Source: a virus (lineage: Duplodnaviria; Caudoviricetes). Taken from it: 64,000 bases of DNA. The stretch lies in the IMG/VR virus record IMGVR_UViG_3300033752_000023, positions 2,391 through 66,390 of that record. One strand, written 5' to 3'. Positions within the stretch are counted from its first letter, which is position 1. Every line of letters starts with the position of its first letter. Below the pieces are notes generated by a model. That model saw only the letters and a list, made by a program, of their open reading frames with translations, was not told the DNA's origin and did no database searches. Positions 7,903 through 55,760 of this stretch are shown here, in pieces. Both the position numbers and the translations under genes were made by a program.

Positions 7903-7993
7903 AACTTTAAGACCTTAATATACTAAAATGTACTAAACTTTAAGACCTTAATATATTAAAATATACTAAACTTTAAGACCTTAATATACTAAA
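7903..7993. repeat. 33-bp AT-rich tandem repeat, about 2.75 copies (iteron-like)
   Basis: AACTTTAAGACCTTAATATA[C/T]TAAAAT[G/A]TACTA at 7903 and 7936, with a 25-bp partial copy at 7969. Confidence 0.9.
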
Positions 7994-8040
7994 GAGTGAA
8001 AATTTGCGCATTGAATTTTAATTTTTATACTAAAGTTTTT

Positions 8041-8087
8041 GGTACTTTAAAAGTCTTTAACTTTTAGCCTACTTCGTAGGCTAAAAG
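8041..8087. other. Copy 1 of a composite element: GGTACTTTAAAAGT plus a 12-bp hairpin with a TTC/GAA triloop
   Basis: CTTTTAGCCTAC-TTC-GTAGGCTAAAAG at 8061-8087; homologous copy at 55734-55760. Confidence 0.75.
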
Positions 8088-8167
8088 GGGCGTGGCGACA
8101 CCAATCTGATACAGAACACTATTGATTTCATATCAATATTGGTGGGTCGGATTTTGAAGGTAAAGGA

Positions 8168-9097
8168 GTGGTATCCATGATTAAGCACTGGCAACACGTA
8201 GAGTATATTACTCAGGAAGATTACGATAAGTTTGCAAAATATAATATTCCTATAACTCCTAAAGAAGCTGGCTTACATTATAATACCGCAGTGTATATTG
8301 AATGTATTAATAGTGGTAAAAGGCTTGAAGGTATATATGACCCAGATATGAAAGGAATACGCAAACTAAACTTGAAAGGCAAAACTGCCAGCAATAGGGA
8401 TTTAAGACTATATTTAGATGCTATTCATAATCCTAAAATTACTATGATTGCTGTTGATGGTCTTATGGGAACAGGTAAGACTTCTACAGCTATAGAAGAA
8501 GTAATAAATCAGCATTTAATAAATGTCAAAATACCGGCTTTCATAGGTGAAGGTTATAAGCCAGACCCAGATGCTCACAAGATAATAATAGCAAAGCCAT
8601 ATATAAATGCTGGCGGTAAATATGAACAGTATGGATTCTTACCTGGTGACATAGATGATAAAATGGATCCAACCCTTTCCAACTTTATACAGTATTTTGA
8701 TAGATTCCATCCGGCAGGCTTTAATAATCTAAGAGAAGCGGGATACGTAGAGATTAAGCCACTAGGATTTATACGTGGACTAGATGCTAAAAACATGACT
8801 ATCATAGCAGATGAGACTCAAAATACTACAGAGTTAATATCACTGGCTACAAGGAAAGCCGAGAATTGTAGAATATTTTTCTTAGGGGACACAAGTCCCT
8901 TCCAAATTGACCTACCAGGAAATACACCTAAGAAGAACGGTCTGCGCCACATTATAGACCTGTTGCAAGGTGCCCCATACTTTCAGTATATTGAAATGAA
9001 GACCCTGGAACACATCGTTCGTAGCGATGAGGTAAGGGATATAGTACGTAGACTGTTCAAGAAGTATGGGCAAGACCCTCAAGAATGGGTAGTTTGA
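8168..9097 (+). CDS. phoH: PhoH-family ATPase
   Basis: GLMGTGKT P-loop, GFLPGDIDDKMDP, FIRG..IIADETQN, GD..QIDL. Confidence 0.9.
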   Translation: MVSMIKHWQHVEYITQEDYDKFAKYNIPITPKEAGLHYNTAVYIECINSGKRLEGIYDPDMKGIRKLNLKGKTASNRDLRLYLDAIHNPKITMIAVDGLMGTGKTSTAIEEVINQHLINVKIPAFIGEGYKPDPDAHKIIIAKPYINAGGKYEQYGFLPGDIDDKMDPTLSNFIQYFDRFHPAGFNNLREAGYVEIKPLGFIRGLDAKNMTIIADETQNTTELISLATRKAENCRIFFLGDTSPFQIDLPGNTPKKNGLRHIIDLLQGAPYFQYIEMKTLEHIVRSDEVRDIVRRLFKKYGQDPQEWVV

Positions 9098-9211
9098 GAG
9101 GGCTATTTCTGTAGGGTGAGTGCAGGGTGGGGATTTATTCTCCACCCTTTAGTGTTTTACTCATAAGAGAGAATTTCGGCTTGGTCAATTTTTATTAGTG
9201 CAAAAGAGGAG

Positions 9212-9394
9212 GTGCAGAACATGACAAAACTTCGCCTGATAACTGGAGATGTGTACACTGAACTATCTCCTGGAGAAGTTCGTTCTTATTTACAGGGGGG
9301 TAGTAAGGGAGGAACTATACCTGGCTACTTAGACATCGACAAAACTACTCCTATCCTCATAGCTGTTCACTCTATTGAATATATCTATGTATAG
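9212..9394 (+). CDS. Hypothetical protein, 60 aa
   Basis: GAGGAGG RBS; adjacent to the next gene. Confidence 0.55.
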   Translation: MQNMTKLRLITGDVYTELSPGEVRSYLQGGSKGGTIPGYLDIDKTTPILIAVHSIEYIYV

Positions 9395-9397
9395 GAG

Positions 9398-10084
9398 TTG
9401 ATGTGGGTGTCTAAGGATAATGCTAAGTCACTGCGTTGGTGGTTAGATGTCACCATTGTAGTATCAGTGTGCTTGACACTTGTAACGCTAATACTGGCAG
9501 TGACGAACCTTACTGAGGACAAAAAGAGGTTGGAACAAGAGGTAAAGGCGTTAAAGGATATTAGACGTGAGTTAATGAAGAATAATAGTATGCTTAATAG
9601 TGAGCTGGAGAATACTGAAATTCAGCTACAAGAAATACAGGAACAATATCAGCAGGTTAACGGTAAGGTAGAACAATTGCAGAAACGTAATGAGCAATTG
9701 CAAAAGGAGAATGATGCCCTAAAAAAGCAGTTACGCATGGAGAGGGCTAAGAAAACCTCTCCAATTTCATCTAGGGGTGTTCGTAAGAGTAATAAGTCCT
9801 TCTACATGAACTCTACTGCCTATACAGCTTACTGTAAGGGATGTTCCGGTAAAACTAGATGGAGAGAGTTGGATTTACGTGCTAACCCTAATCTTAAGGT
9901 GATAGCAGTAGACCCAAGCATCATCCCGCTAGGCACTAAAGTTTATGTAGAAGGCTACGGATACGCTATAGCAGCCGACACTGGTGGAGCTATACATGGT
10001 TATAAGATAGATATATTCATGCCAAGCAGACAACAGGCACTACAATGGGGTAGAAGGACTGTAAAGGTCACTATCATAAACTAG
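9398..10084 (+). CDS. Membrane-anchored coiled-coil protein with C-terminal 3D (MltA-like cell-wall hydrolase) domain
   Basis: N-terminal hydrophobic helix, heptad region, then STAY..VIAVDPSIIPLGTKVYVEGYGYAIAADTGGAI.G.KIDIF. Confidence 0.9.
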   Translation: MMWVSKDNAKSLRWWLDVTIVVSVCLTLVTLILAVTNLTEDKKRLEQEVKALKDIRRELMKNNSMLNSELENTEIQLQEIQEQYQQVNGKVEQLQKRNEQLQKENDALKKQLRMERAKKTSPISSRGVRKSNKSFYMNSTAYTAYCKGCSGKTRWRELDLRANPNLKVIAVDPSIIPLGTKVYVEGYGYAIAADTGGAIHGYKIDIFMPSRQQALQWGRRTVKVTIIN

Positions 10085-10246
10085 TATTAGTGGTAATGCT
10101 TCTGGACAGGAATTTATATTTTACAATAATTGTCTCCTACTTTGACCTACCACATGGTCATACGAAGGAGACAATTTTTGTCCTTCTGCTTAATTTAAGT
10201 TGCCAGCCGTCAAGAGCAAATAACAATACATGATAGGGGGATATTT

Positions 10247-13200
10247 ATGTTCAAGTTTACTGAAGAACAAATAGCGAAATATCGTGACATTACTCCACCA
10301 TTTGGTATGATTGGTTCTACAACCTATAAGAGGACATATTCAAGACCTATCTATGATGAAAACGGTAAGATGGTAAATAGAGAATCATGGTTGGATACTA
10401 TTGTACGTGTTATTGAAGGTAATGTTAATTTAGGTATAGAGAATGGTGATCCTACTGCAACGCCAGAGTGGGCAGAAGAAGCCTTGGAATATATGTTTTA
10501 CATGGGTGTTATGCCACCTGGACGTGGATATTGGATGATGGGAACGGAGTACGCTTATCAACGTGGTGGAGATGCTTTAAACAACTGCTGGTACGTAGCT
10601 ATTCGCCCGCAAAGCTACGAGGATATTGAAATGTTCAAGGACCAACCATATATTTTCTCTGATCCATGGAAAGAGATGCCTTCGTATCCATTTGTATTTA
10701 TGTTTGACCGGGCTATGTTGGGTGGAGGAGTAGGATTCGGTGCCAGTCGTAAGAATCTTAAATTAATGCCTAAGGTTACTACTGAAGTTGATCTTAAAAT
10801 CTTTCTACACCCTAATCATCCAGACTGGGAACGTATTATGGCTAGTGAGGAATGGGGTCGTATTAAAGATTATATTACAACGGACACAAATATTGCCCAG
10901 AAAGCCAAAGAAGAAGGTACTTACTATTTTACTACAGACAACCGTGAGGGTTGGAATATTTCTGTACGTGAAACTATTGATGGTCATTTTGTGAAGACTA
11001 AGCTAGATAAAAATAAGGTTACCCTGGTGGTTGACTTATCACGTATCAGACCATATGGGGCACCGATTAAAGGATTCGGTGGTACTGCTAGTGGTCCACT
11101 TCCACTTATTTCAGCCTTAGTGGAGATTAACAGAATACTTAATGCTCGTGTAGGTAAACGTATCACAAGTGAAGATACATTAGACATCATGAACTTGTTA
11201 GGGCGTTGTGTAGTTGCAGGTAATGTGAGACGTACTGCTCTTATTGCCTTGGGTGACGCTGATGACCCAGATTATGTTAATGCTAAGAACTACAAACTCG
11301 TTGAGCCAATTATGGAAAAAGATGAAAATGGTTACACTATCTGGGAAACTAATAAGTGGGGTCGGATGACACAAAAACGTAAGAGTTTTGATATAGTAGT
11401 GCAGGAACTATTAGACAAAAAATTATCTGAATTCTACAAGGACGGTAGAACTCCATCAGATGAACAATTAGCTGAGTTGAAAGCCAAAGCAGAGGAAGAA
11501 GCTAATTACCTATTTGAATTAGCTTGGAAGCAGGAGAACCATAGATGGGCTTCTAACAATTCTGTATATACTTACGAGATGTTTAAGGACCATCACTTCA
11601 TTGCCGCAGGTATTATTGCTAATGGTGAGCCAGGAGTAGGTAATGAGTGGTTAATGAAGAACTTTGGTCGTATTATGGACGGTTTTCAAGAAGCAATAGA
11701 TCGAGATGCAGAAGGGCTTAATCCTTGTTTTAGGGGCGACATGAGACTTCTAACAGTTGATGGGTATAAAACGTTTGAAGAGTTGGAAGGAACAGAACCA
11801 CTCATTATCAATAAGGATGGAGTTGTAGTTAAGGGTAAGGTCTGGTGCTCTGGGGTAAAAGATATTGTGGAGGTTAAGTTCCTTAATCGAGATAGTATTT
11901 TTGTTACTCCAGACCATGTGTTTATGTTGAATGATGGTACTGAGTGTCAGGCTAAGGACTTGAAAGGTAAGCGTATTATGCCATTCCTTACTGAAAACTA
12001 TAATCACGAGGATGAGTTTGTAAAACTTGGCTTTATTTTGGGGGATGGCTCATTCCGTATAACCAAAGGACATTTTGATGGTGTAGATGTAAATATAGGA
12101 AAAAAGGATACTGACGTGTGTGAAATGTTTGGTAGTCCTAAGCTTCAGTCTAGTGGTAGGGTTTTCTTCACTTCAGAGTTTAATGACCTGATTGAGCAAG
12201 TAGGTGTTGATACAGTACCTGTATACAATAGGTCATTGCCTTCTACTTATAGTGATTGGACAGACAGTCAGAAGCTAGGATTTTTACGTGGTTTGTATTC
12301 AGCTAATGGTAGTGTTTTAAATAACGGTCGTGTAACTTACAAGACTACTAGTGAGCAATTGGCATACCAATTAGTAGAGGCTTTGAGCGAGTTTGGTATT
12401 CATGCTTATGTGACATCTAACAGTCCTACAGACATTGCATGGCATAATGGCACGTACACATCAGCTCAAAGTTATGATGTAAATATACAAAGGTATGAAT
12501 CTCGGCTTGAGTTCTACAGACTAATTGGGTTTGTACAGCAATATAAGCAAAATAAACTTAGAACTACTCTAATTGAAACAGCTCCTATGGTTTGTAATGT
12601 AATTGAGCGTGGACAAGAGAAAGTGTATGACTTTACTGAACCTCTAACCCATTGGGGGGTAGTTGAGGGGGTTATAGCTCATAACTGCGCAGAAATCACA
12701 TTATGGAACTGTGAGCCTTGTAACCTAGTTGAATTTGTACCATACATGTGCATGAAGTCTGGCTTAGACTTCAAGAAGGCTTTACGTATTGCCACACAAT
12801 ACGCATATCGTATTACATTTGCTAAATACATCTGGAAAGCAACTGCTAGGGTAATAGCTCAGAACAGACGTATCGGTGTATCATTAACAGGTATGCAAGA
12901 CTACTTCCTTACTAAATATGGTCACTATGCAGTAAAAGGATTCGAGATTGACCCTGAGACAGGTAAAGAAGACATTACAAAGCCAATTTTTTACCAAGAG
13001 ATTGTAGATGAGTTAGATGAATGGTATAGCTACGTAAGGGAAGTTAACATGGAGCATGCTAGATTGATGGGTGATAATCCATCTATCAAGGTTACTACAG
13101 TTAAACCATCTGGTACAGTTGCTAAATTGCCTGGTGTATCATCTGGAATTCATTGGCACTATTCACCTTATATAATTCAGCGTATCCGATTCCATGAAAC

Positions 13201-13681
13201 AGACCCTAACTTGAAGGTACTGGAAGCATGTGGATTCCCTATTGAGAAGGCTGCTAAGGAACCTAATACAATGGTAGTGGAATTCCCTATCAAGAATCCT
13301 AACGCAGACCATCCTAACTTCTTGGGTGCTGGTGACATTCCATTAGAAGTGCAGTTTGCTAACCAATACTTATTTGCATATGCTTGGGCTGACAATGCGG
13401 TATCAGCAACATTGACATTCAAATATGAGGAAGTGGACAAAATCGAGCCGCTGTTGAAGGCTTACAACAACCGTATTAAGTCCACATCGCTGTTACCATA
13501 TAGTGGTCACGGATATGTTCAAGCTCCTTGGGAACCTATAACTAAAGAGGAATATGAAAGACGTGCAGCACAACTGAAGGCTACTCCAGAGGAAATGTAT
13601 GAACTTATACCACTGGTAACGGAAGCTGACGAAGAAATATTAGATCCAGACTGCTTAGGTGGTGCTTGCCCAGTTAAATAA
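10247..13681 (+). CDS. nrdJ: Class II (adenosylcobalamin-dependent) ribonucleotide reductase containing an intein
   Basis: PPGRG, ALNNC, VVAGNVRR, RWASNNS, NP|CAEI active site, RRIGVS, TTVKPSGT, C-terminal C..GACP. Confidence 0.93.
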   Translation: MFKFTEEQIAKYRDITPPFGMIGSTTYKRTYSRPIYDENGKMVNRESWLDTIVRVIEGNVNLGIENGDPTATPEWAEEALEYMFYMGVMPPGRGYWMMGTEYAYQRGGDALNNCWYVAIRPQSYEDIEMFKDQPYIFSDPWKEMPSYPFVFMFDRAMLGGGVGFGASRKNLKLMPKVTTEVDLKIFLHPNHPDWERIMASEEWGRIKDYITTDTNIAQKAKEEGTYYFTTDNREGWNISVRETIDGHFVKTKLDKNKVTLVVDLSRIRPYGAPIKGFGGTASGPLPLISALVEINRILNARVGKRITSEDTLDIMNLLGRCVVAGNVRRTALIALGDADDPDYVNAKNYKLVEPIMEKDENGYTIWETNKWGRMTQKRKSFDIVVQELLDKKLSEFYKDGRTPSDEQLAELKAKAEEEANYLFELAWKQENHRWASNNSVYTYEMFKDHHFIAAGIIANGEPGVGNEWLMKNFGRIMDGFQEAIDRDAEGLNPCFRGDMRLLTVDGYKTFEELEGTEPLIINKDGVVVKGKVWCSGVKDIVEVKFLNRDSIFVTPDHVFMLNDGTECQAKDLKGKRIMPFLTENYNHEDEFVKLGFILGDGSFRITKGHFDGVDVNIGKKDTDVCEMFGSPKLQSSGRVFFTSEFNDLIEQVGVDTVPVYNRSLPSTYSDWTDSQKLGFLRGLYSANGSVLNNGRVTYKTTSEQLAYQLVEALSEFGIHAYVTSNSPTDIAWHNGTYTSAQSYDVNIQRYESRLEFYRLIGFVQQYKQNKLRTTLIETAPMVCNVIERGQEKVYDFTEPLTHWGVVEGVIAHNCAEITLWNCEPCNLVEFVPYMCMKSGLDFKKALRIATQYAYRITFAKYIWKATARVIAQNRRIGVSLTGMQDYFLTKYGHYAVKGFEIDPETGKEDITKPIFYQEIVDELDEWYSYVREVNMEHARLMGDNPSIKVTTVKPSGTVAKLPGVSSGIHWHYSPYIIQRIRFHETDPNLKVLEACGFPIEKAAKEPNTMVVEFPIKNPNADHPNFLGAGDIPLEVQFANQYLFAYAWADNAVSATLTFKYEEVDKIEPLLKAYNNRIKSTSLLPYSGHGYVQAPWEPITKEEYERRAAQLKATPEEMYELIPLVTEADEEILDPDCLGGACPVK
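11726..12685 (+). mobile_element. Intein (320 aa) with LAGLIDADG endonuclease, inserted immediately before the RNR catalytic Cys
   Basis: EGLNP|CFRGDMRLLT...GVIAHN|CAEI; LGFILGDGS and FLRGLYSANGS motifs. Confidence 0.93.
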
Positions 13682-13699
13682 GAGAGAATTTACAAAAGG

Positions 13700-13939
13700 T
13701 TGGTTTCTTTAATTGAAACCAACCTTTATGTTTGGGGTGTTGATATGGATTTTGGTCTATTTTTATGTATATTAGGGCTAGGGACTTCTATACCATTTAC
13801 GTTGGTGATTATCATAAACCTGATTATTAAGGTTAGGGAAGGTGATAGATACCAATTGAATATTATATCTCTAGGTAAGGTTTATCTAGTAGCACTATTA
13901 GGCTGGGCTCTATTCTTTTCAACCCTCACAGGGAGGTGA
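13700..13939 (+). CDS. Small two-TM membrane protein (probable start ATG 13745)
   Basis: Two hydrophobic segments; GGGGT RBS before 13745. Confidence 0.6.
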   Translation: MVSLIETNLYVWGVDMDFGLFLCILGLGTSIPFTLVIIINLIIKVREGDRYQLNIISLGKVYLVALLGWALFFSTLTGR

Positions 13940-13944
13940 CCTTT

Positions 13945-14106
13945 ATGGAGGAGAAACAGGAAATAAGGTTTCCATATGCTACAGATATGGAAGAGAGAAG
14001 GAAAAAAGCATTGGAGAAGGCTATAGAGCATGAGAAATCGTTTATAAAAGCCAATACAGATGATGGTCTGTTTAAGAAACGCATGGGCTCTGATTTATTT
14101 AAGTAG
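13945..14106 (+). CDS. 53-aa protein not in the ORF track (MEEKQEIRFP...GSDLFK)
   Basis: GGGAGGTG RBS, ATG at 13945, TAG at 14104-14106; fills the gap between its neighbours. Confidence 0.65.
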   Translation: MEEKQEIRFPYATDMEERRKKALEKAIEHEKSFIKANTDDGLFKKRMGSDLFK

Positions 14107-14109
14107 GAG

Positions 14110-14334
14110 GTGGAAGCAATGAGTTATACATTTTTACGCTGGAATGGGCAATATGGTCATGACGCTAAGTTTGTTGTACAGGACAATAGCACAGGTCAAC
14201 AAGCTATATTTACTCCAGGTCGTACACAGGACCTAGTTTGGACTACAACTAAGCTAGATGAAACCCCAGAGATTTCTAAGTGGTCAGATTTTGGTAATGA
14301 AACAGTACATGATTTAGATGAAGTTGCCTTCTAA
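14110..14334 (+). CDS. Hypothetical protein (probable start ATG 14119)
   Basis: AGGAGG RBS before 14119; followed by a hairpin terminator. Confidence 0.65.
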   Translation: MEAMSYTFLRWNGQYGHDAKFVVQDNSTGQQAIFTPGRTQDLVWTTTKLDETPEISKWSDFGNETVHDLDEVAF

Positions 14335-31498: not shown

Positions 31499-34105
31499 AT
31501 GGCGTCTAACAACAATGTGAGAATCAAACTCAGTGCTGATACAAAGGAAGCTATACGAAGCGTACGTGAGTTTGAGAGACAAGTAAATAAGCTCGGTGAT
31601 TTAGCTGATCAGGGTCAGCGCAGACAAGACGGATTTTTATCTAGTAGGCAGGTACAGATGTATAGGAGAATCCTTAAAGAAATGGAGAACTCCTATGCAC
31701 AACACCAAAAGAACTTGCAAAGGATAGAAGCCGAGTACCAAAATCGTAAAAACAGCAAGGAACTTGAAGAACTTAAGAGATTAGAGCGGGAGCTAGAAAA
31801 ACGTCAGCGGCTATTACGTCATGCTGAAGGTGGCAATAGGTGGGGAGATGTGGCTAGCCCTGTGGTGCAAGAATATCACAGGACTAAACTAGAAGAAGCC
31901 CAGAAAGCCTTAGACGCATATAAAAACTCTGATGAGTTAAAGAAAGCTATGGCTGACGTGACCCAGCTAGAATCTGAACTTAATGTAATGCGATCTACTT
32001 TACAACAGCTACAAGCCGAACGTCAGCGTGCACAAATTCATAGTAACCGCATAGATCAAATGTATGAGATGGACCCTACTATGCGCAGATATATGAATGG
32101 TGTTGTGCAGACAGTAGGCTCTACTGGTGCCATCATAGGTTTTAATAAATACTGGGAATACACAATGGGTGGTATAGACATCCTTAGAGCACAAGAAAGA
32201 GAAGCTAGTGCAGTTGCTCTAAGGTCTGGTGCTTACACTGGTGTAGACGGGGCTGATGGTGAACATAGGAGGGCTATATACAATTTAGGTGAGCAAAATA
32301 ACTATGATACTCTACAGACTGCCGCATTACAAAGATTAATACTAACAGGTGGAACGTCAAGCGACCTTGATGCTCTGAATAAGGATACATTTGCTATTCA
32401 GAGGTTTAGTAGAGCTTATGCAATGGATCCTATGCAACTGGCTTCAGCAGGTTCTCTATTGCAACGTATGGGGACTTTAGATGAAGGGCAACAACAGAGA
32501 TTTGCTAATATGATTGCAGGTGCCATAGCTAAAAATGGTATGCGTGGTCGTGAAGAGGAAATGCTGAGGGCTACAATATCCTTAGCTGAATCAGTAAGCC
32601 AGGGGCAAGCTATATTTACCCAACAGCAGTTGAAAAACACAATGGGGTTACAGGTGGCATTAGGTCAGTCTGTACCAGAACTTAGAGGTGAACGAGGAGC
32701 CCAATTGTTATCTACTATAGATAGCTCTATCAAAAATGGTGGTCCTCAATTAGACTTATTGATGGGTAAGGGTACTGAATTTGTTGGCTTGCATGGCATG
32801 ACCAAGCTAGAAGAACTTAAAGAACAGGGTCTATCTAACCCAGAAAACTTACAACGGATACTCAAAAATGCTAACCGTATGTTCGGTGGTAATGAGGATA
32901 TGATTAAATGGGCTCTTAAAGAGCAACTAGGATTACAGATGAACGAGTACAACGCTCTTAAAAAATCTGGGTTATTGGATAAGATTATGGAGGACCCTTA
33001 CTCTGTTACATCGGCAGACCTATCAAAGGCTGGTGCTAAGGAATTAGCAAAACAGTGGGGGACTTATTCATCCTCTGAAACTGCTAAGGTGGACTATTTA
33101 GATTCTCAATCCTCAAACCTACAAGCTAGCCATGCACAACTAGCTGATGAAGCCGCTAAAAGTTCTAGGGGTATATGGCATGGCATGCCAGACTGGATGC
33201 AACATGCTCTATTACCTCTGGTATCCCTTGGTGGGGGTTTGGCTATAGGCTGGAAAGGTGGTCTTTTACTTAGAAAGGCTGCTAATGCAGTTACTAAACG
33301 CATCAACCCCAACATCAGTGGTCAAGGCGGTATAGCTAATTGGCTGTCTAGCAAGTTTAAGGGCGGTGGTGGCGGTACTCCTCCTACTCCTCCTACTGTA
33401 CCACCTGCGGGTGGTGGCGGATTCAGAGGTGCAATAGGTCAAGTATTAAAAGGTTGGGGTAAAGCAGTTCCTCTAGCAGGCGGTGCTCTGACCGTTGCTG
33501 TAGACCAAGCTACGACTGATAACAACTTTGGTAGAAGTATTGCTAAAGGTGTAGGTAGTGCCATAGGTAATGTGCTGGGAGCCGCAGGTGGTATAGCTTT
33601 AGGCTTCGGAACAGGTGGGTTAGGTGTAGCTGCTACTGGTGGTATGACTATTGGTGGCGGTATGATAGGTGAGAAGGTAGGAGATTGGATTTACAGTTTA
33701 TTTGCTGGGGATGAGGATAAGCAACCTAAGAAAGTACCTACCCCAGACAGTTCTTCTAGTGCTGGGGATAAGCAATCTAAGAAAGTACCTACCGAAAACA
33801 GCTCTTCTAGTGCTGGGGCTGTTGCAGTTGGTAGTATTAATACCGATAGGATTAACATAAATAATAAAGACCTTGCTAGCTACTTTGAAAAGCAGCCCTC
33901 TCGTAAAGATGTGTCCCAGTCTACTAGCTCTTCTAGTAAGGAGCAAGTCATTAGGATAATAATTGAGGGCGACATCAAAGGTATGGATAAGAAGAACCAA
34001 GATAAGGTTACTAACTCTATTAGAGACTACTTCTCCATCTTATCCAGCCCTTTCAATCCATTTAGATACAACCTGGCTTTTGACCAATCCAGACAGCTAG
34101 GATAA
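31499..34105 (+). CDS. Tape measure protein
   Basis: Follows the chaperone; helical N-terminus, Gly/Ala-rich hydrophobic C-terminal part. Confidence 0.8.
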   Translation: MASNNNVRIKLSADTKEAIRSVREFERQVNKLGDLADQGQRRQDGFLSSRQVQMYRRILKEMENSYAQHQKNLQRIEAEYQNRKNSKELEELKRLERELEKRQRLLRHAEGGNRWGDVASPVVQEYHRTKLEEAQKALDAYKNSDELKKAMADVTQLESELNVMRSTLQQLQAERQRAQIHSNRIDQMYEMDPTMRRYMNGVVQTVGSTGAIIGFNKYWEYTMGGIDILRAQEREASAVALRSGAYTGVDGADGEHRRAIYNLGEQNNYDTLQTAALQRLILTGGTSSDLDALNKDTFAIQRFSRAYAMDPMQLASAGSLLQRMGTLDEGQQQRFANMIAGAIAKNGMRGREEEMLRATISLAESVSQGQAIFTQQQLKNTMGLQVALGQSVPELRGERGAQLLSTIDSSIKNGGPQLDLLMGKGTEFVGLHGMTKLEELKEQGLSNPENLQRILKNANRMFGGNEDMIKWALKEQLGLQMNEYNALKKSGLLDKIMEDPYSVTSADLSKAGAKELAKQWGTYSSSETAKVDYLDSQSSNLQASHAQLADEAAKSSRGIWHGMPDWMQHALLPLVSLGGGLAIGWKGGLLLRKAANAVTKRINPNISGQGGIANWLSSKFKGGGGGTPPTPPTVPPAGGGGFRGAIGQVLKGWGKAVPLAGGALTVAVDQATTDNNFGRSIAKGVGSAIGNVLGAAGGIALGFGTGGLGVAATGGMTIGGGMIGEKVGDWIYSLFAGDEDKQPKKVPTPDSSSSAGDKQSKKVPTENSSSSAGAVAVGSINTDRININNKDLASYFEKQPSRKDVSQSTSSSSKEQVIRIIIEGDIKGMDKKNQDKVTNSIRDYFSILSSPFNPFRYNLAFDQSRQLG
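33716..33817 (+). repeat. 51-bp tandem duplication in the tape measure C-terminus
   Basis: DKQPKKVPTPDSSSSAG / DKQSKKVPTENSSSSAG. Confidence 0.9.
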
Positions 34106-34116: not shown

Positions 34117-36282
34117 ATGAATGTAGAATTATACCGTCCTAGAGCTAATGTAGTATTCTATACTGAAAATGGGGAGTTAGTGGCAAGAGCCACTAACGAC
34201 CCTAAATCAGCTATGGATGATGACGTGGTTAGCATAACCACTACCAGGGATATGCAAGCAGACTCCCCTACGTTCTCCATAGAACTAACTACTAGAAAGC
34301 CTTGGCATAAATGGGTAGCTTCCAATGATTTAGTCATTATACAAATGTATAGACCACCGGAAGCCTTAGCTACAGTATTCGTAGGACTAGTAGATGACTG
34401 TCGTAAAAGAGTTATAGTTGCTGATAATACTGTTCAAAGGGTCATCTCTGTAGTTGGTAGGGGTGTAGCTAAAGCATTTATTAGATTTGATGTGGGAATA
34501 GTACCGGAAGCGGAATATGCGTCTACATCAGTAGGCTGGCTGGAGTCAGCAGGTATCACTCTTGCAGGCTCCGCTCCTGGCAGAATAGTTGAAGCTATAT
34601 GGGATATTATATGTATGAAGCACATAAATTATAAATGGAGCAACGGAAAAACTTTATTTGATTATGTAAAGAAATCTGTTAAGGACAGACCTAACCTCAA
34701 GCTACTAGATTCCTCCAATATAATGAACTGGCAAGGTAGTATCTATGCACTATTTAAAGAAGTAGCTGAAGAGCCTTTCTATGAAGTGTTTTGGGAAATA
34801 CTAGGTGGGCTCCCAACTCTTGTAGTTAGACCTACACCTTTCAATAAGACTGACTGGGATAATTTGACTGTCATAAAAATAACAGATGCCGATGTGGTTT
34901 CCGATGAAGTTGGTAGAAGTGACGTAGAAACATACAGTATCTTCTCTGTTGGTGCTAAGACCCTATTTAGCCCCCACGACACGTATAAAACCTTTGGAGT
35001 ACTACCTTACTGGAATAAAGAGTATGCTAAAAAGTATGGTAACTCTAGGTTACATGTTGAAACATCCTACACTTCAGTATCTAGCAGTGAAGATGTAGAA
35101 TTGCAAACTGACACTATGCGGGAATTAATGAGGGACCTATATAATTGGAATATTAAGAACAATTCCATGCTTAATGGTAATTTAGTTGTCAAAGGTTCCA
35201 ATAAATATAAAGTAGGAACCAGAATTATATATACATCTACAGAAAACAATAGCGAAAATGAATTCTATGTAACCTCAGTTACACATACATTTGTTAATTT
35301 CGGTAAATATACAACCACCCTAGGAGTAACTAGAGGATTACCTCCGAAAGAGAGATTTACACCTCCTTGGGATAAATATGAAGAATACTCTGGTTTAGGT
35401 ATAGTACCATTTGATCCTAAAGCTGCTAAAGAAGCTATGGAATTAGAAGGTGGTGTTGGAGGTGATGGTTTATCTGGAGTAGACTTTGGTACATCAAACA
35501 GAGTTGTATCTGGGGCTAAAGAAATAATGGAGAAAGGTATAAATGGGGTTAAAGTTAGGTATATTTTTGGAGGAAATGACCCATCTAGAGGTAGGCTAGA
35601 TTGTTCGTCTTTCACTCAATATGTATACAGAACGTATGCTGGAATAGATATAGGTAGGGTTACAGGTGAACAGGTTACAAAAGGTTTTAAAATTGATAAA
35701 AGTCAATTAGTGCCTGGTGACTTAGTATTTTTTAAGGGGACTTACAACAGTCCTCACATATATGGAGTTTCTCACGTAGGAATCTATATAGGTGATGGTA
35801 AATTTATTCATAATTCTAGTGGGGCAGGTGGTGTAACTACAGGGGATCTAAGTAGCTCTTACTGGGTTGATCATTGGTTAATGGGCAGAAGGGTACTAAC
35901 TGGAGGTCAATCTAGTGGAGGTTCGGGAGAAACTTTTATAGCAAGTGCATATGGGGCTACTGCTCTTAACTTAGGAGCCCCTAGTTGGTGGACTCCTACT
36001 GGAAAAACAGCTATAGGCACAAGACCTGTGGAAGGTAGAACTATAGCAGTTGACCCTAAAGTAATACCACTTTATAGTAAAGTTAGAATAACATGTGATA
36101 GCTATCCTAGTGTTAACGGAGAATATATTGCAGAAGATACAGGAGGAGCTATTAAAGGTAAAAGAATAGACATCTACTTTGATGATCTTCCTCCTAAAGA
36201 CCCTCATGCGGCTAGAAAACGTATGTTAAATTTTGGTAAGAGAGAAGTTAAAGTTACAATACTAAAAAGAGGTAAGGGGTGA
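34117..36282 (+). CDS. Baseplate hub / tail lysin with NlpC/P60 peptidase and 3D domains
   Basis: YIFGG..LDCSSFTQYVY..PGDLVFF..HVGIYIGDGKFIH; IAVDPKVIPL..AEDTGGAIKGKRIDIYF. Confidence 0.9.
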   Translation: MNVELYRPRANVVFYTENGELVARATNDPKSAMDDDVVSITTTRDMQADSPTFSIELTTRKPWHKWVASNDLVIIQMYRPPEALATVFVGLVDDCRKRVIVADNTVQRVISVVGRGVAKAFIRFDVGIVPEAEYASTSVGWLESAGITLAGSAPGRIVEAIWDIICMKHINYKWSNGKTLFDYVKKSVKDRPNLKLLDSSNIMNWQGSIYALFKEVAEEPFYEVFWEILGGLPTLVVRPTPFNKTDWDNLTVIKITDADVVSDEVGRSDVETYSIFSVGAKTLFSPHDTYKTFGVLPYWNKEYAKKYGNSRLHVETSYTSVSSSEDVELQTDTMRELMRDLYNWNIKNNSMLNGNLVVKGSNKYKVGTRIIYTSTENNSENEFYVTSVTHTFVNFGKYTTTLGVTRGLPPKERFTPPWDKYEEYSGLGIVPFDPKAAKEAMELEGGVGGDGLSGVDFGTSNRVVSGAKEIMEKGINGVKVRYIFGGNDPSRGRLDCSSFTQYVYRTYAGIDIGRVTGEQVTKGFKIDKSQLVPGDLVFFKGTYNSPHIYGVSHVGIYIGDGKFIHNSSGAGGVTTGDLSSSYWVDHWLMGRRVLTGGQSSGGSGETFIASAYGATALNLGAPSWWTPTGKTAIGTRPVEGRTIAVDPKVIPLYSKVRITCDSYPSVNGEYIAEDTGGAIKGKRIDIYFDDLPPKDPHAARKRMLNFGKREVKVTILKRGKG

Positions 36283-44118: not shown

Positions 44119-44124
44119 CATAAG

Positions 44125-50357: not shown

Positions 50358-50550
50358 TATTGATCTAGTAATTCAGGACTTAATTGGTCAAATAGCAAAT
50401 TTGTCTAAGGAGAAAGCTATTTTCTCCGCATTAGCGACACAACATACAGTGGAGATCAACCAATTACGTCAAGAAAATGAACAGTTGAGAAAACAGATTG
50501 AGGAGCTTGAAAAACAAGAAGGGACAGGAAAACCTACTGATGGAAAATAG
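50332..50550 (+). CDS. Small coiled-coil protein after the fibre gene (probable start ATG 50347)
   Basis: GGAGG RBS; heptad pattern. Confidence 0.65.
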   Translation: MEVCPMQANIDLVIQDLIGQIANLSKEKAIFSALATQHTVEINQLRQENEQLRKQIEELEKQEGTGKPTDGK

Positions 50551-50638
50551 ACATTAACTTAACGACAAAAAGATAAAGATGTTTTTTTACCTACACATCT
50601 CCTTAGTTCTCCATTATTGATAGAGGTTTATAACACTG

Positions 50639-50671
50639 AAGGTGGGAAATTATTTCCCACCTTTTATTTTT
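50639..50671 (+). terminator. Intrinsic terminator
   Basis: AAGGTGGGAAA/TTTCCCACCTT 11-bp stem plus a T-run. Confidence 0.8.
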
Positions 50672-50720
50672 GTAACCAATTCGATTTTTATAAGGTAGAT
50701 TCATAAAACTTAACTAAGGA

Positions 50721-51227
50721 GTGGTCGATATGCAAGCTGCTATGTACAGAAAGGCAGGTGTGGGTACCATGAGGCACTATTTTGAACAGCTTGCTTCTGG
50801 CTTTGAATATAAGATTGTTCTCAGCATTATTGGGGCAATAATAGCTAAAATAGAAGGCTTCTATGGTGAACTAGTATGGGGATTTCTTGCCCTATTCTGT
50901 CTGGACTTAGTATCCGGCATATGGAAATCTAAAAAGAAAGGAATACCTATAAGTAGTAGAAGATTAAGGGATTCAGTAAGTAAGCTAGGTGCCTACATGG
51001 TACTTATGACAGCCTTAATTGTTGCTAGTAAATATGAACCATCTTTCTTACCTATTGTAACGGTAACCTACTACTATTTTATGTTTACAGAACTTAAATC
51101 AATTATTGAAAATGTAGAGGAGATAGGTGTGAAAATACCTAAATTCTTAAGACAAGAAGTAAACTCTAAAGTAGAAGATTCTGAAAACGAAGACGAGGAG
51201 GAAGGAAAAGATGGCAAACGCTCGTAA
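50721..51227 (+). CDS. Holin (phage holin family 4-like)
   Basis: LDLVSGIWKS..ISS..LR..K, three hydrophobic segments, E..SIIEN..IGVKIP.FL; precedes the endolysin. Confidence 0.8.
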   Translation: MVDMQAAMYRKAGVGTMRHYFEQLASGFEYKIVLSIIGAIIAKIEGFYGELVWGFLALFCLDLVSGIWKSKKKGIPISSRRLRDSVSKLGAYMVLMTALIVASKYEPSFLPIVTVTYYYFMFTELKSIIENVEEIGVKIPKFLRQEVNSKVEDSENEDEEEGKDGKRS

Positions 51228-52065
51228 TTTCCTAATTGCATTAGATGATGGTCATGGTATGGAGACCCCAGGTAAACGTACTCCTTATATTGCTTCATTA
51301 GGTAGAGAGATTAAGGAAAACGAATTCAATAGGGCAGTAGTAAAATACTTAGATGAAGAGCTAAGACGTTGTGGTTTTCGTACTTTGTTGGTAGCACCTA
51401 CTGATAAAGACGTACCTCTTAAAAAGAGAACTGACTTAGCTAACGCTAAGGGTGCAGATGCCTATATTTCAATACACTATAATGCTTTTGATGGTAAATT
51501 TAATGGTCCTGGTAAAGACCCAGAAGGTCACTCTATTCACATATATCCAGGTTCTAAATCTGGTCGTAAGCTAGCAGAATGTATCTTAAAATACTTGAGA
51601 CAAGGTACACCACAAAAAAATCGTGGCATACAGGAAAATAATTTCCATGTACTGAGAGAAACTAAAATGCCTGCTGTTCTATCTGAGAATGGATTTATGG
51701 ACAACATGAGAGAAGCACTACTAATGATTAACAAACAATTCCAAAAAGAAGTAGCTATAGAACACGCTAAAGGAATCTGTGACTACTTCGGAGTTAAGTA
51801 CGTGCCAAAAGCCACCCCAGTTAAAAAACCTACTAGCACAGGTAACAAAATATACAAAGTACAAACTGGAGCCTTCAAAGTAAAGGGATATGCAGACAAA
51901 TTAGCTAAAGAACTAAAGAAAGATGGATATGACACATTTATTGTCCACGACAAGTACTATAAAGTACAAACTGGTGCATTTAGTGTAAGGAAAAATGCAG
52001 AAAAACTAGCTATGGAGCTTAGGAAGAAAGGATATTCTGTATTTATTGTAGAGGTGGGAAAATAA
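51211..52065 (+). CDS. Endolysin: N-acetylmuramoyl-L-alanine amidase (Amidase_3) with two SPOR-like repeats
   Basis: IALDDGHG, E.EFN, R..LAN..GAD.YISIH.NA, VLRETKMPAVL.E.GF; YKVQTGAF twice. Confidence 0.93.
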   Translation: MANARNFLIALDDGHGMETPGKRTPYIASLGREIKENEFNRAVVKYLDEELRRCGFRTLLVAPTDKDVPLKKRTDLANAKGADAYISIHYNAFDGKFNGPGKDPEGHSIHIYPGSKSGRKLAECILKYLRQGTPQKNRGIQENNFHVLRETKMPAVLSENGFMDNMREALLMINKQFQKEVAIEHAKGICDYFGVKYVPKATPVKKPTSTGNKIYKVQTGAFKVKGYADKLAKELKKDGYDTFIVHDKYYKVQTGAFSVRKNAEKLAMELRKKGYSVFIVEVGK

Positions 52066-52066
52066 T

Positions 52067-52486
52067 ATGGAGCAAATATTAAATGTCATAACCCAGTCTG
52101 CTGTTGAAATCATAGTGGTCATTATTGGCTACCTGGCTATGTCCATAGCCTACAAGGTTCGAGGATATGTAGACAGACTTAAGAAGAAAGATGAACTTGG
52201 TATTGTTGATGTTATTACTGATGCAGTAGTAGAGTGGACAGAAGCTGAACTGAAAGGTAAGCCAGGTATAGAGAAGCGAGATTTCGCTGTAAAGAAAGCT
52301 GTAGAAATACTATCATCTAAAGGCATTAAGGTCAGCGAAGCTGAAATTATTGCAGGTATTGAAAACGGTGTTAATAAACTCCGTTTAAAACAACAAAAAG
52401 GCTCATCCACCCAAATAACTCAAAATGCCCACGAAATTCAAATGCGGGCAATGAGCAAACCTGATGGTTTAAGCGACATGTTTTAA
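52067..52486 (+). CDS. Second holin-like protein (LL-H type)
   Basis: One N-terminal TM helix, then AVVEWTEAEL..KPG.EK..FAV..GI..IE.GV. Confidence 0.65.
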   Translation: MEQILNVITQSAVEIIVVIIGYLAMSIAYKVRGYVDRLKKKDELGIVDVITDAVVEWTEAELKGKPGIEKRDFAVKKAVEILSSKGIKVSEAEIIAGIENGVNKLRLKQQKGSSTQITQNAHEIQMRAMSKPDGLSDMF

Positions 52487-52501
52487 TAGGACATTATATC
52501 C

Positions 52502-52545
52502 GAAAATCCCTGCCAAAATCAATGGCAGGGATTTTCATTATGTCC
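52502..52545. terminator. Strong hairpin ending the late operon, possibly bidirectional
   Basis: 14-bp stem GAAAATCCCTGCCA/TGGCAGGGATTTTC. Confidence 0.75.
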
Positions 52546-52617
52546 AAACCAACGACAAAATTTGCCTATAATGTGCCCTAGAACTATGAAAACCAGGACT
52601 AGCAGTACCCCTCTGTG

Positions 52618-52646
52618 TTGACATCTCCCGAAAGGTGTGGCAAAAT
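52618..52646 (+). promoter_or_regulatory. Host sigma-A-type promoter at the start of the replication module
   Basis: TTGACA-17 bp-CAAAAT with an extended -10 TG. Confidence 0.65.
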
Positions 52647-52707
52647 GAGGTTGAGGTGAAAAGTTCGTGGAAAACGATTATTTTATGTATATAATCTAAT
52701 TCTGGAG

Positions 52708-55608
52708 GTGTGCCGTATGGCTATAATTGAAATACACAATTTGTACTCAAAAGTCATAGACGCTTCTCCAAAAGCCCTAATAGCTATTGACAATGCCTTA
52801 GCGGTTGAGACACCAGGATATAAATTTACAGCCAGCTATAGAAGTGGACATTGGGACGGTATGACTAGATTTTTCAATAGAGTCAGAAGTAAGTCAGGAG
52901 TGAAGGGTAAATTCCCTACTGGTCTTCTATCCGAAGTAGTAATGGCTATGAGAAGGGCAGGAGAAGAGGTAGAAATAGTTGACAAACGTAATATCATCGA
53001 GGTAAATGTACCTAATGAGATAAAACTAAAGCACAAAGAGCTAGGTGAAATTACACTACGTGATTACCAGTATGAATCAGTAAAGAAAGGTCTTGAATCT
53101 ACACGTGGTATAATAAATGTAGCAACAAATGGGGGTAAGTGTGTACCTAAAGACACTCTGGTACTAACACCTGAGGGTTATAAAACCATAGAACAGATAT
53201 TTATGGAAAACGGAACACCTTGTGAGATAGCTGACAAGGCTGTGGAAACTGAGGTTGAGTTAATCAACCGCTACGGTAAGCCTGAGAGAGCCAGCCATCT
53301 GACTTTTAATGGTGTTAAACCTGTCATAAAAACTACACTAAATTCTGGTATAGAATTGAAATCCACCTACAATCATCCATTATTAACTGTTAATGAAAAT
53401 GGTGATTTTGAATGGAAGAATACAGAGGATATTAAAGTTGGAGACATGTTAGTCACTAGAATAGGAGATAACATATATGGATCCAACAATACAATTAACG
53501 AACATGAAGCATACTGTGTAGGTGCATTGTTGGCAGATGCTTATATAGGTCAAGACTATAAAATTGGATTTACTAATGACCAACCAGTTTTACTAGACAT
53601 CATAGAAGAATATTTTAAGACATTGAACCCAACAAGTATCACTAGGGAATATAGTAAACGCTCAATGAATAGTATAACAGTTGTACAACATGGTAAAGAA
53701 TCTACTATTAACTGGCATAATAGACTTGGTATAGATTATGGTGTAGCTAAGGACAAACATGTACCTCAATGTATTATGGAGGCACCAAAAAGTGTACAGT
53801 TATCTTTTCTATCTGGATACCTGGAATGTGAATGTCACATAGATGTTTCTAGACCTAGAATGGAAGTTACCTCTGCTTCTAAGAAACTGATGACTCAGAT
53901 ACAACTAATGCTAAAAAATATGGGAGTTATGTCTTCGCTAAGAATCAAAAAACAGGCAAAAGGTTACTACTATAGATTGACAATAGCAACAAAATATTTG
54001 GTGAAGTTGCTCAGTATGTTAGACTTCAAAACCGAGCAAAGACAAAATCAGGCTATAGAGTCAGTATCAAATTACTATAGCAAAAGTCGCAGACCAGATA
54101 ATGAGTCAGTTCCTAATGGTAAAACTCTCATTACTATGTATAAGGATGGGTATAAAAACATACCATCAGGAGCAAAGAAGAAAATGCATGTACCAAACAA
54201 TATAAGCCGAGATAGAATGAGTGAACTGCTATGCATGTACCCAGATGGTCCAGAGCATATAAAGGACAAGATAGAAGCACTGATTGATGACAACCTATAC
54301 TTCGATAAGGTGGTGTCTATAGAATACGTAGGGGAAGAGCCTACATTTGATGTTTGTATGCCAGAGACCCATAGTTTCATAGCTAGCAGCGTAGTAAACC
54401 ATAATACCGAGATAGCTTGTGGTATCATCCAGACATTACTTCCCCAACTAAAAGACGGTGAGAGAATAGTATTCTTTACACATGCTAAAGAAATATTCAC
54501 TCAGTCACACAAACGTATACAAGAACGGTTAGGTATAAAGGTTGGTCTCATAGGTGACGGTAAGTGGGAAGAAGAGCAGGTTACTGTGGCTATGATACCT
54601 ACGATTGCCAAATACTTAAAGAAGCCAAAAATCTTACCAAAGACTAAGAAGTACAAAGAGTTAAGTGAAAAGATAGACCTAATGATGATTAAATATGCCA
54701 GCATGAAAGACAAGGAACAGAAGAAGGAGTATAAGGAGCAGATAGATGCAGCACGCCAAGAGTTAGAAGAATATACTAAAGAGCAATGGGACAAGATTAA
54801 TGAGAATGTTGCTAGGACCAATGAATTCCTAAACTCAATCGTATGCTTTATAGGCGATGAGGTACACCATGCTTCTTCTGATACGTGGTACCAAGTGTTT
54901 ATGTCCTTGGAGAGAGCATACTTTAGATTCGGCTTAACTGGTACAGTAGATGAGAGTAATAGGATAAACATCAAACGTTTACTGGGTTGTACAGGTAAGA
55001 TAATAACCAAAATATCTAACGAGTTTTTGATTGATAGAGGATACTCAGCAAAACCTACAATCTATATGATGAGTTTAGGCAACATCAAACCTATCGAGAA
55101 GGTTCCGTACGCTGAAGCTAGACGGATGGGAATTATAGAGTGTAAAGAACGTAATCAAAAATTCATAGACAAAGTACTGGAGAGAGCAAAATCCGGGAAA
55201 CAGTGTTTAATTATTGTGAACGAAACAGAGCATGGGGAAATTGTGCTAGACATGTTAGAAGGTAAAGGTGTAACAGTCAAGTTCACACATGGAGAAAAGT
55301 CTAGTAAATACCGAGAACAGGTTCTACAGGAATTAAGAGAGGGCACCTTGCAAGTACTTATAGCTACATCTATACTAGATGAGGGGGTAGACGTATCTGG
55401 GATAAACTGCTTATTCCTAATGGCTGGCGGTAAATCTATGAGGCAGTTACTGCAACGTATCGGTCGAGGATTACGTAAGAAAGAAGATGGCAGTGGATTG
55501 GAAGTATATGATGCGTTAGACTACCATAATGAATACCTGGTGGACCACACTTTAGAGAGATATTATACTTACAAAGACGAAGGGTTCGAGATAACCAAGT
55601 TGCAATAG
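52708..55608 (+). CDS. SF2 (UvsW-like) DNA helicase containing an intein (probable start ATG 52717)
   Basis: LRDYQ Q-motif, ATNGGK|T Walker A, GDEVHH, GLTGT, LDEGVD, QRIGRGLR. Confidence 0.92.
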   Translation: MCRMAIIEIHNLYSKVIDASPKALIAIDNALAVETPGYKFTASYRSGHWDGMTRFFNRVRSKSGVKGKFPTGLLSEVVMAMRRAGEEVEIVDKRNIIEVNVPNEIKLKHKELGEITLRDYQYESVKKGLESTRGIINVATNGGKCVPKDTLVLTPEGYKTIEQIFMENGTPCEIADKAVETEVELINRYGKPERASHLTFNGVKPVIKTTLNSGIELKSTYNHPLLTVNENGDFEWKNTEDIKVGDMLVTRIGDNIYGSNNTINEHEAYCVGALLADAYIGQDYKIGFTNDQPVLLDIIEEYFKTLNPTSITREYSKRSMNSITVVQHGKESTINWHNRLGIDYGVAKDKHVPQCIMEAPKSVQLSFLSGYLECECHIDVSRPRMEVTSASKKLMTQIQLMLKNMGVMSSLRIKKQAKGYYYRLTIATKYLVKLLSMLDFKTEQRQNQAIESVSNYYSKSRRPDNESVPNGKTLITMYKDGYKNIPSGAKKKMHVPNNISRDRMSELLCMYPDGPEHIKDKIEALIDDNLYFDKVVSIEYVGEEPTFDVCMPETHSFIASSVVNHNTEIACGIIQTLLPQLKDGERIVFFTHAKEIFTQSHKRIQERLGIKVGLIGDGKWEEEQVTVAMIPTIAKYLKKPKILPKTKKYKELSEKIDLMMIKYASMKDKEQKKEYKEQIDAARQELEEYTKEQWDKINENVARTNEFLNSIVCFIGDEVHHASSDTWYQVFMSLERAYFRFGLTGTVDESNRINIKRLLGCTGKIITKISNEFLIDRGYSAKPTIYMMSLGNIKPIEKVPYAEARRMGIIECKERNQKFIDKVLERAKSGKQCLIIVNETEHGEIVLDMLEGKGVTVKFTHGEKSSKYREQVLQELREGTLQVLIATSILDEGVDVSGINCLFLMAGGKSMRQLLQRIGRGLRKKEDGSGLEVYDALDYHNEYLVDHTLERYYTYKDEGFEITKLQ
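53140..54405 (+). mobile_element. Intein (422 aa) splitting the helicase Walker A motif
   Basis: NGGK|CVPKDTLVLT...SSVVNHN|TEIAC; atypical LAGLIDADG motifs VGALLADAY and LSGYLECEC. Confidence 0.93.
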
Positions 55609-55609
55609 A

Positions 55610-55760
55610 AAGCCTAGGACGAAGTACCTAGGCTTCGCTTAATATATTTAAAGGTACTTTAAAAGTACTTTAAAGGTATTTTAAAGTATCTTATAAATAC
55701 TTTATAAGTCTTTTTTAAATTAAAAATTTTTAAGTTTTAACTTACTTCGTAAGTTAAAAC
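55610..55760. repeat. Copy 2 of the composite AT-rich element: 11-bp repeats between two triloop hairpins (origin-like)
   Basis: TTTAAAGGTAC/TTTAAAAGTAC/TTTAAAGGTAT from 55647; hairpins at 55610-55635 and 55734-55760. Confidence 0.8.

Follow-up and report, generated by a model that had tools for sequence, protein, structure and literature searches.

Two AT-rich, hairpin-bearing intergenic elements of an uncultured SPO1-like phage belong to a small conserved family of candidate replication initiation sites

What do two AT-rich intergenic sites, each ending in nearly the same hairpin, do in a phage genome? Both lie in a window of 64 kb, the whole stretch of DNA analysed here, out of the 66,390-bp IMG/VR virus record IMGVR_UViG_3300033752_000023 (completeness judged ~46%). 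Because of its gene content and weak nucleotide matches, we regard the source as a fragment of an uncultured SPO1-like phage (Spounavirinae, Herelleviridae). One site (copy 1) precedes a PhoH-like gene, and the other (copy 2) a homologue of SPO1 gp20.1. Sequence comparison indicates that the two hairpins are members of a small family of non-coding elements, not filed before, which SPO1-like phages retain at the same few positions. We propose that each copy is a composite cis-acting DNA site, of which SPO1-group phages would carry three or four at fixed intergenic places.

The stems of copies 1 and 2 (coordinates in Table 1) differ at three positions, each of which is compensated on the opposite arm. 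Folded as single-stranded DNA, hairpin 1 reached -11.1 kcal/mol on the plus strand and -10.7 on the minus strand, and hairpin 2 reached -9.3 and -8.9, with z-scores against shuffled sequences between -3.4 and -5.6 for both hairpins on both strands. Within the window the core TACTTCGTA is confined to the two hairpin sites, and a search of the 66-kb record found no copy beyond these two. The 14-mer GGTACTTTAAAAGT occurs in the AT tract of each copy and nowhere else; the expectation by chance is 0.02, and two matches were found in 0 of 100 shuffles. The tandem arrays next to the hairpins were recovered by Tandem Repeats Finder, which placed the 11-bp period of copy 2 at 55647-55686, running on to 55713, and by autocorrelation, with maxima at lag 33 in copy 1 and at lags 11 and 22 in copy 2. 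Every 33-bp unit of copy 1 contains a small TTAAG-N2-CTTAA inverted repeat. The original prediction, made from the window alone, is thus borne out: the two sites are one element whose stem co-varies, and hairpins, 14-mer and both arrays are present where predicted and far above chance.

Comparison with relatives resolves the anatomy of the element. An AT-rich tract leads into a perfect hairpin, 11-17 bp long and always topped by TAC-loop-GTA, and GC-rich DNA follows. Going outward from the loop, the first three pairs (C-G, A-T and T-A) never change, the following two are pyrimidine-purine in every copy but one, the middle three vary freely with pairing always kept, and the outer stem has a T-rich 5' arm and an A-rich 3' arm. 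In an alignment of nine sequences, from which the short-stemmed CP-51 116-kb copy, misplaced by MAFFT, was excluded for the pair count, both-sided changes occur in 9 of 12 pairs, 99.1% of the cells are paired, and no pair shows a one-sided (wobble) change. The observed covariation score was reached by 0 of 500 shuffles, and shifting the partner by one column lowered pairing to 47-59%. Intrastrand pairing is clearly under selection. Nearly every copy has GAA, or the complementary TTC, as its loop. At locus L131 (~1110-1150, 5' of a gp20.1 homologue) TACTTCG stands three times in tandem between intact arms, an expansion that looks like replication slippage on a folded hairpin.

The hairpin was found in SPO1-like phages at the same two loci as in the window. 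The gp20.1 locus carries it in SPO1, SP82G, SP8, Goe16 and Exiguobacterium phage Eal132, as well as at one IMG/VR and nine metagenome loci (orthologous hairpins at L066 and L125-L140), in the order terminator, AT-rich tract, hairpin, GC-rich sequence and ribosome-binding site. For the IMG/VR loci a single-protein search found none, and an alignment-based search was used. The PhoH locus carries it, with the same order of parts, in the same five phages, for instance at 33089-33115 in SPO1 and 34525-34555 in Eal132, and in both the window and SPO1 the element follows tRNA-Arg. SPO1, SP82G, SP8 and Goe16 have a third copy, located between genes 56 and 55 of the early region. The elements are retained even though the proteins encoded at the shared loci are merely 36-62% identical. 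No element was found 5' of the gp20.1 homologue in LysYB1 and SP-10. Searching by PhoH mainly brought up CP-51-like loci, where this position is without the element, and yielded nothing closely related to copy 1. When IMG/VR was scanned for an exact pattern that fixed both outer and inner stem bases, the only matches were unrelated giant-virus and coding sequences, the stems being too variable for such a scan.

The tie between hairpin and tract is close. The tracts are 81-94% AT and the AT-richest of each genome. SPO1 has four tracts of at least 85% AT over 60 bp, at 11.3, 33.0, 78.3 and 98.9 kb, which are exactly the four with a long TAC-loop-GTA hairpin, and the association is similar in Eal132 and CP-51. 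The window has three tracts of at least 85% AT, namely the two elements and one within coding sequence; AT content is 0.81 across 7895-8060 of copy 1. Each genome has only three or four copies. Hairpins of this class have 79-93% AT on one side and G/C-rich DNA after, and all copies change abruptly to GGGCG-type sequence right past the stem. In 12 of the 16 elements examined a second, GC-rich hairpin of 4-7 bp with differing sequence begins 0-1 nt past the main one; SPO1 is without it. These second hairpins were scored per sequence, since RNAalifold on the gp20.1 leaders misaligned the variable loops and recovered the main hairpin only. Two shorter motifs lie further downstream. ATGGACAGCT is common to the gp20.1 leaders of the window (55779-55798) and of CP-51-like phages (L012/L013), and in the window it forms a three-codon mini open reading frame (ORF), ATG GAC AGC TAA, just 5' of the ribosome-binding site; a looser ACAGTAT motif stands 18-30 nt past the hairpin in many copies, including that of the SPO1 early region.

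The arrays are less constant than the hairpin. The helical-turn periodicity originally claimed holds for gp20.1-type arrays, whereas the PhoH-type arrays of relatives show little or none of it by autocorrelation, and neither unit nor period is conserved between loci or genera. This variation bears on the possibility that the elements are architectural or regulatory sites, in which tract units and palindrome would be bound by a phage protein (the HU-like TF1 or gp20.1) that bends or insulates DNA at transcription-unit borders and controls nearby promoters. Proteins of the HU family have a preference for bent and cruciform DNA, TF1 has preferred binding sites in the DNA of SPO1, and curved A-tract DNA upstream stimulates promoters of the related phage SP82. 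The units are near-palindromic, of CTTTTAAAAG or GTACTTTAAAAGTAC type, with a spacing of ~11-12 bp in several copies, and the elements stand between terminators and the next operon. Nevertheless, we consider such a role rather unlikely, as dimer binding to duplex DNA leaves the complementarity of the non-conserved middle stem positions unexplained, any recognisable promoter is 27 to more than 100 bp away from the tract, a greater distance than a classical UP element allows, and no binding protein was identified. As a separate observation, two SPO1 tracts contain uninterrupted A runs of ~35 and ~45 bases (78.37-78.40 kb and 11.40-11.44 kb; L039 and L036). SP8 and Goe16 have short interrupted A runs at these positions, and the SP82G record has Ns; judging from this comparison, the long SPO1 runs are recent, unstable expansions.

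Stable hairpins within intergenic DNA readily suggest ordinary intrinsic terminators, a reading that the original prediction had set against its own. The sequence excludes it for practical purposes, and we give it next to no credence. A terminator scan of both strands reported neither hairpin. The bases after the stem are GGGCG or GGGAC on the plus strand and TTAAAG or TTAAAA on the minus strand, without a T run on either. Real terminators in these phages consist of an A-rich arm, a GC stem and a T run, and the element hairpins, with their T-rich 5' and A-rich 3' arms, have the reverse polarity. Moreover, a separate terminator-like hairpin precedes each AT tract. The one before copy 2, at the stop codon of the UvsW-like helicase gene, had been taken for a second C-GAA-G hairpin of the element. 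Its minimum-energy fold has a 9-bp stem and an 8-nt loop, and it has a weak T run and failed the terminator scan. Because relatives keep its stem AGCCTAGG/CCTAGGCT with unrelated loops, the GAA in it is incidental, and the hairpin belongs to the helicase gene.

Whether the elements are transcribed is a question on which the evidence is mixed. Sigma-70-type promoter scans gave nothing above chance in either element of the window. A box at the upstream edge of copy 1 resembles what we take to be the SPO1 gp28 middle-promoter pattern (AGGAGA, 17-18 nt, TTTNTTT), and may have promoter activity. Boxes of this type, A(A/G)GAG(A/T)(A/G)AAA followed 18 nt later by a T-rich element, also border the tract upstream elsewhere: a pattern scan found them before PhoH in SPO1, SP8 and Eal132 as well as at L066 and L125, and further ones were seen by eye at L129, L138 and L140. 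Overall, every PhoH site and several gp20.1 sites have the box, and none was present at copy 2 or at four other copies, among them SPO1 11.3 kb, Eal132 87 kb and CP-51 116 kb. A strict scan of SPO1 with this pattern gave only six matches, several of which are terminators. The SPO1 33-kb tract has a sigma-A-like promoter upstream. The SPO1 11.3-kb copy has a terminator on one side and, ~115 bp past the hairpin, a good sigma-A promoter (TTGACT-17-AATAAT with TG) of the next gene, and thus probably lies in a non-transcribed spacer.

We consider that the elements most likely act on DNA, as (i) the loop is strand-symmetric, (ii) the stem is strictly Watson-Crick, (iii) the order of hairpin and tract can be swapped, and (iv) the hairpins are tied one to one to the most meltable DNA. 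These features support the DNA-level character assumed at the outset. At the early-region locus the loop of Goe16 is flipped relative to that of SPO1, SP82G and SP8 on an unchanged stem, although the loop is otherwise conserved across genera. Such a flip should not be tolerated by an RNA-reading protein, whereas recognition of duplex, cruciform or either-strand DNA tolerates it. G-U or G-T pairs are found in 0 of 107 paired cells, whereas G-T pairs make up 5.5% in a set of 101 terminator-like hairpins from these genomes; zero wobble fits selection on both DNA strands, an argument weakened by the fact that the copies were found by a scan for perfect stems. In CP-51-like phages (gp20.1 site), in the terminal repeat of Eal132 and at 98.9 kb in SPO1 the hairpin comes first, on the opposite side of the tract; a DNA site can readily accommodate this arrangement, which would be strange in an mRNA leader.

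The alternative at the RNA level is that tract and hairpin are transcribed from a middle promoter or by read-through, and that the hairpin acts in the mRNAs of PhoH and of the gp20.1-helicase operon. RNase Y cleavage in AU-rich RNA beside a stem and protective 5' stem-loops are both established in Bacillus. A cut of the RNase Y type in the AU-rich part would leave the hairpin and the small GC hairpin at the 5' end, shielding the message from 5' exonuclease; alternatively, the hairpin could be the operator of a translational repressor. We regard an RNA leader as the most serious rival, only slightly less likely than the replication reading set out below. In its favour are the constant orientation of tract, hairpin and gene in the main class, the distance of 44-50 nt between the hairpin end and the start codon at the gp20.1 site, the second, co-varying hairpin in most copies, and the promoter-like boxes and sigma-A-like promoter mentioned above. 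Besides the loop flip, the absence of G-U pairs, the CP-51-like arrangement and the position of the SPO1 11.3-kb copy, the low number of elements per genome counts against it, as these phages have many middle transcripts. There was also no match to an Rfam family: with Rfam 15 up to E = 1, the region 7000-8300 gave only tRNA-Arg and a far-below-threshold chance match on the opposite strand over it, and 55500-57800 gave none.

If the elements act on DNA, a site made of an unwinding tract and a hairpin would most plausibly be a replication initiation zone similar to T4 oriF and oriG. This is our best single reading, although we hold it with somewhat less than even confidence. An easily unwound AT-rich tract is joined to a perfect palindrome, so that opening of the duplex would allow a hairpin to fold or a cruciform to extrude; the cap would be a C-GAA-G triloop on the one strand and C-TTC-G on its complement. 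In the scheme we envisage, a phage promoter at the tract edge, or breathing of the tract alone, would open the tract; the exposed strand would fold into the hairpin beside a GC-rich clamp; and the branched structure might then be where the phage helicase and primase, the genes of which adjoin copy 2, enter or prime. Replication initiation is favoured by the few dispersed copies, by the location of one of them near helicase genes and by the layout of promoter-like box, AT tract and structure, which resembles that of the T4 origins. The sheared G:A triloop, the source of the stability of N4 promoter DNA hairpins (PMC4496689), also speaks for it. We infer both hairpin formation in DNA in vivo and its role in replication from these features. 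No sequence-level description of the SPO1 replication origins was found in the accessible literature.

Several observations weigh against replication initiation. GC skew, the check suggested with the original claim of origins, climbs steadily through both sites of the window, and in the complete relatives it tracks gene direction only, so that no origin signal was seen. The fold search with gp20.1, in which all matches were weak, revealed no initiator-like fold. The main class always has the order tract, hairpin and gene, and at the gp20.1 locus the close spacing to the start codon and the small second hairpin within that gap are reminiscent of an mRNA leader. The middle-promoter-like box upstream of many tracts implies that the hairpin is transcribed there. 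Finally, loops other than GAA/TTC exist, namely TAAC (L125 and CP-51-like phages), AAA (L139) and the tripled TACTTCG of L131.

A different use of the same palindromes would be as programmed break or recombination sites: exposed by replication, they would fold and be cut by a phage SbcCD-like nuclease, and the ends would prime recombination-dependent replication. SbcD- and SbcC-like proteins are encoded downstream in the window (58863-59939 and 60982-62895), the stems are perfect, strand-symmetric palindromes, and the loop flips and the L131 expansion can be taken to show hairpin formation during DNA metabolism. Known palindromic substrates of SbcCD are longer than stems of 12-17 bp, and cleavage leaves the AT tract and the fixed gene-adjacent positions unexplained, so that we find this explanation very unlikely.

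The gp20.1 homologue next to copy 2 is a candidate partner protein. Its predicted structure is all-helical (mean predicted local distance difference test score 83.6; predicted template modelling score 0.44). Foldseek had no match with E <= 0.001. The matches from VIA-align were weak (Z <= 6.1) and to helical bundles, AAA+ lid domains and a DnaD-like fragment (Z 4.5) among them. The window protein is 88% identical to the homologue on a 129-kb contig (P0001), which is probably the holder of the closest relative of both copies. Homologues of ~400 amino acids (aa) in LysYB1, SP-10 and several metagenomic phages (L014:1090-2289, L016:1141-2361 and L141-L147) have an extra N-terminal winged-helix-like domain with sub-threshold HTH_36 and RP-C matches, and in these phages the hairpin and AT tract are missing upstream. 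The element and this extra domain seem to be mutually exclusive in the sequences compared. It is attractive to speculate, although with considerable doubt, that SPO1-group phages, which contain hydroxymethyluracil (hmU), initiate replication at three or four fixed AT tracts opened by transcription or breathing, and that the hairpin of the displaced strand serves as a loading or priming platform in place of the winged-helix initiator domain still present in the gp20.1 homologues of related phages that lack the hairpin. If true, a hairpin-platform origin would be a design not described for any phage.

Nearly all genes of the window lie on the plus strand; ten window proteins were compared with PHROGs and Pfam. 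As originally noted, copy 2 lies between helicase genes: the UvsW-like gene (52708-55608; Pfam UvsW_N match), which contains an intein, precedes it, and the gp20.1 homologue and then a DnaB-like helicase gene follow. Upstream of copy 1 are tRNA-Arg (7371-7448; anticodon CCT), a terminator (7495-7528) and a small Cys-rich ORF (7678-7860; 57-60 aa) with a good ribosome-binding site, whose transcript may enter copy 1 because no terminator lies in between.

Table 1. Coordinates of the parts of copies 1 and 2 and of the genes directly downstream (positions in the window; a dot marks features without strand)
Feature	Position	Strand	Description
Copy 1 array	7903-7993	.	2.8 tandem copies of an AT-rich 33-bp unit; Tandem Repeats Finder, 94% matches
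Copy 1 box	7992-8022	+	AAGAGTGAAA, then TTTTAAT 18 nt past the first hexamer; pattern scan
Copy 1 AT tract	7994-8060	.	Between repeats and hairpin; holds the 14-mer GGTACTTTAAAAGT at 8041-8054
Copy 1 hairpin	8061-8087	.	Perfect 12-bp stem; loop TTC on plus strand, GAA on minus strand; TAC/GTA top
Copy 1 downstream stretch	8088-8167	+	GC-richer, C/A-rich; from hairpin to PhoH-like gene
PhoH-like gene	8168-9097	+	PHROGs and Pfam; directly downstream of copy 1
Hairpin at stop codon of UvsW-like helicase gene	55610-55635	+	Terminator-like; upstream border of copy 2; by fold
Copy 2 AT tract	55639-55733	.	87% AT; ~11-bp units of type GTACTTTAAAG; holds the 14-mer at 55653-55666
Copy 2 hairpin	55734-55760	.	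Perfect 12-bp stem; loop TTC on plus strand; TAC/GTA top
Copy 2 second hairpin	55761-55775	+	Short, GC-rich, GGGA...TCCC; abuts main hairpin
SPO1 gp20.1 homologue (phrog_14232)	55804-56586	+	Candidate partner protein; DnaB-like helicase gene next

Other features of the neighbouring genes were noted in passing. The DnaB-like helicase gene consists of two ORFs (56656-57336 and 57686-58288) parted by a GC-richer insert of 349 bp (57337-57685; GC 0.44), while its SPO1 counterpart, gp21.1, is a single uninterrupted protein of 456 aa. A group I intron is the likely cause of the split; the insert gave no Rfam match up to E = 1. Inteins with a LAGLIDADG endonuclease domain (Pfam Intein_splicing and LAGLIDADG_3) are present in the ribonucleotide reductase (10247-13681) and in the UvsW-like helicase. 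Good candidates for sigma-A-type promoters (TTGACA, 17 nt, GAAAAT or CAAAAT) lie at 6060-6159, before the gene at 6160, and at 52487-52707, before the helicase gene, which suggests that both units may be transcribed early by the host polymerase.

SPO1 is a classic model phage, and the Herelleviridae include phages used against Staphylococcus and Listeria. The comparison yields candidate cis sites in the cultivable SPO1, at ~11.3, 33.1, 78.4 and 98.9 kb, and a comparative signature for the family in the co-varying stem, the strand-symmetric loop and the tie to the AT-richest DNA. Should the elements be origins, they would represent a new origin architecture and would explain why the loop flip is permitted; should they act in RNA, the PhoH and helicase operons would be under the control of a new conserved leader motif. 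On either reading the family can be annotated in related genomes.

Known systems resemble the elements in part. Once single-stranded, DNA hairpins capped by C-GAA-G, such as those of the d(GCGAAGC) type and of G4-type complementary-strand origins, are very stable and act as priming or loading signals. Those signals are strand-specific and usually clustered, with a known primase, whereas the elements have one long hairpin, sometimes with a small companion, and a loop whose strand is free. Iteron-type origins, as in lambda and SPP1, have repeated binding sites for an adjacent initiator protein. Repeats are present here (33 bp x 2.8 in copy 1 and the 11-bp units in copy 2), their unit and period vary among relatives, and no initiator fold was recognised in the adjacent gp20.1, a sub-threshold winged-helix N-terminus being confined to the long homologues of other phages.

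The original prediction had also raised promoters of the N4 type, in which a phage RNA polymerase would read an extruded single strand. Features of N4 promoters are a GC-rich heptamer with its centre at -11, stems of 5-7 bp and conservation from -17 to +1, and a virion polymerase of 3500 aa is required; the unusual stability of their DNA hairpins comes from a sheared G:A triloop (PMC4496689). The elements share with them a DNA hairpin with a purine-rich loop of three bases closed by C-G, a sheared G:A pair, and non-conserved stem positions that may change if paired, and G-rich DNA directly after the hairpin is a possible start site. Unlike the GC-rich N4 stems, with their fixed template strand and dedicated polymerase, the stems here are 11-17 bp long and AT-rich, with only TAC-loop-GTA invariant, and GAA may lie on either strand with respect to the gene downstream. 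SPO1 itself is transcribed by the host polymerase with phage sigma factors (PMC13401047). Heptamer and stem length do not fit, and we judge N4-type promoters to be highly improbable.

Two systems come from nearer relatives. The RNase III substrates in the early RNAs of SP82, a very close relative of SPO1, are stems with internal loops, cut once on the downstream side (PMC1935012). Like the elements, one of which lies in the early region, they are conserved intergenic stem-loops, although by their description they differ from the uninterrupted, shorter and mostly non-early stems found here. In Staphylococcus phage K, which belongs to the Herelleviridae but to another subfamily, the intergenic gap with the lowest GC content, which has direct repeats, was proposed as the origin on the ground that it is untranscribed (PMC9241854); no hairpin was reported in that description, and the phage K origin is itself an inference.

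A close parallel is provided by T4 oriF (in uvsY) and oriG (in gene 34), non-coding modules of ~100 bp in which a middle promoter is followed by an A+T-rich unwinding element (PMC3016281). They share with the elements the non-coding character and a size of ~100 bp, the A+T-rich unwinding element, their occurrence at several places in a genome and the presence of a phage-encoded UvsW-type helicase. The promoter-like box is lacking in some of the elements, copy 2 among them, and the elements are known here from sequence alone. The T4 origins have no conserved hairpin, whereas in the elements of the SPO1-like phages the hairpin is the best-conserved part.

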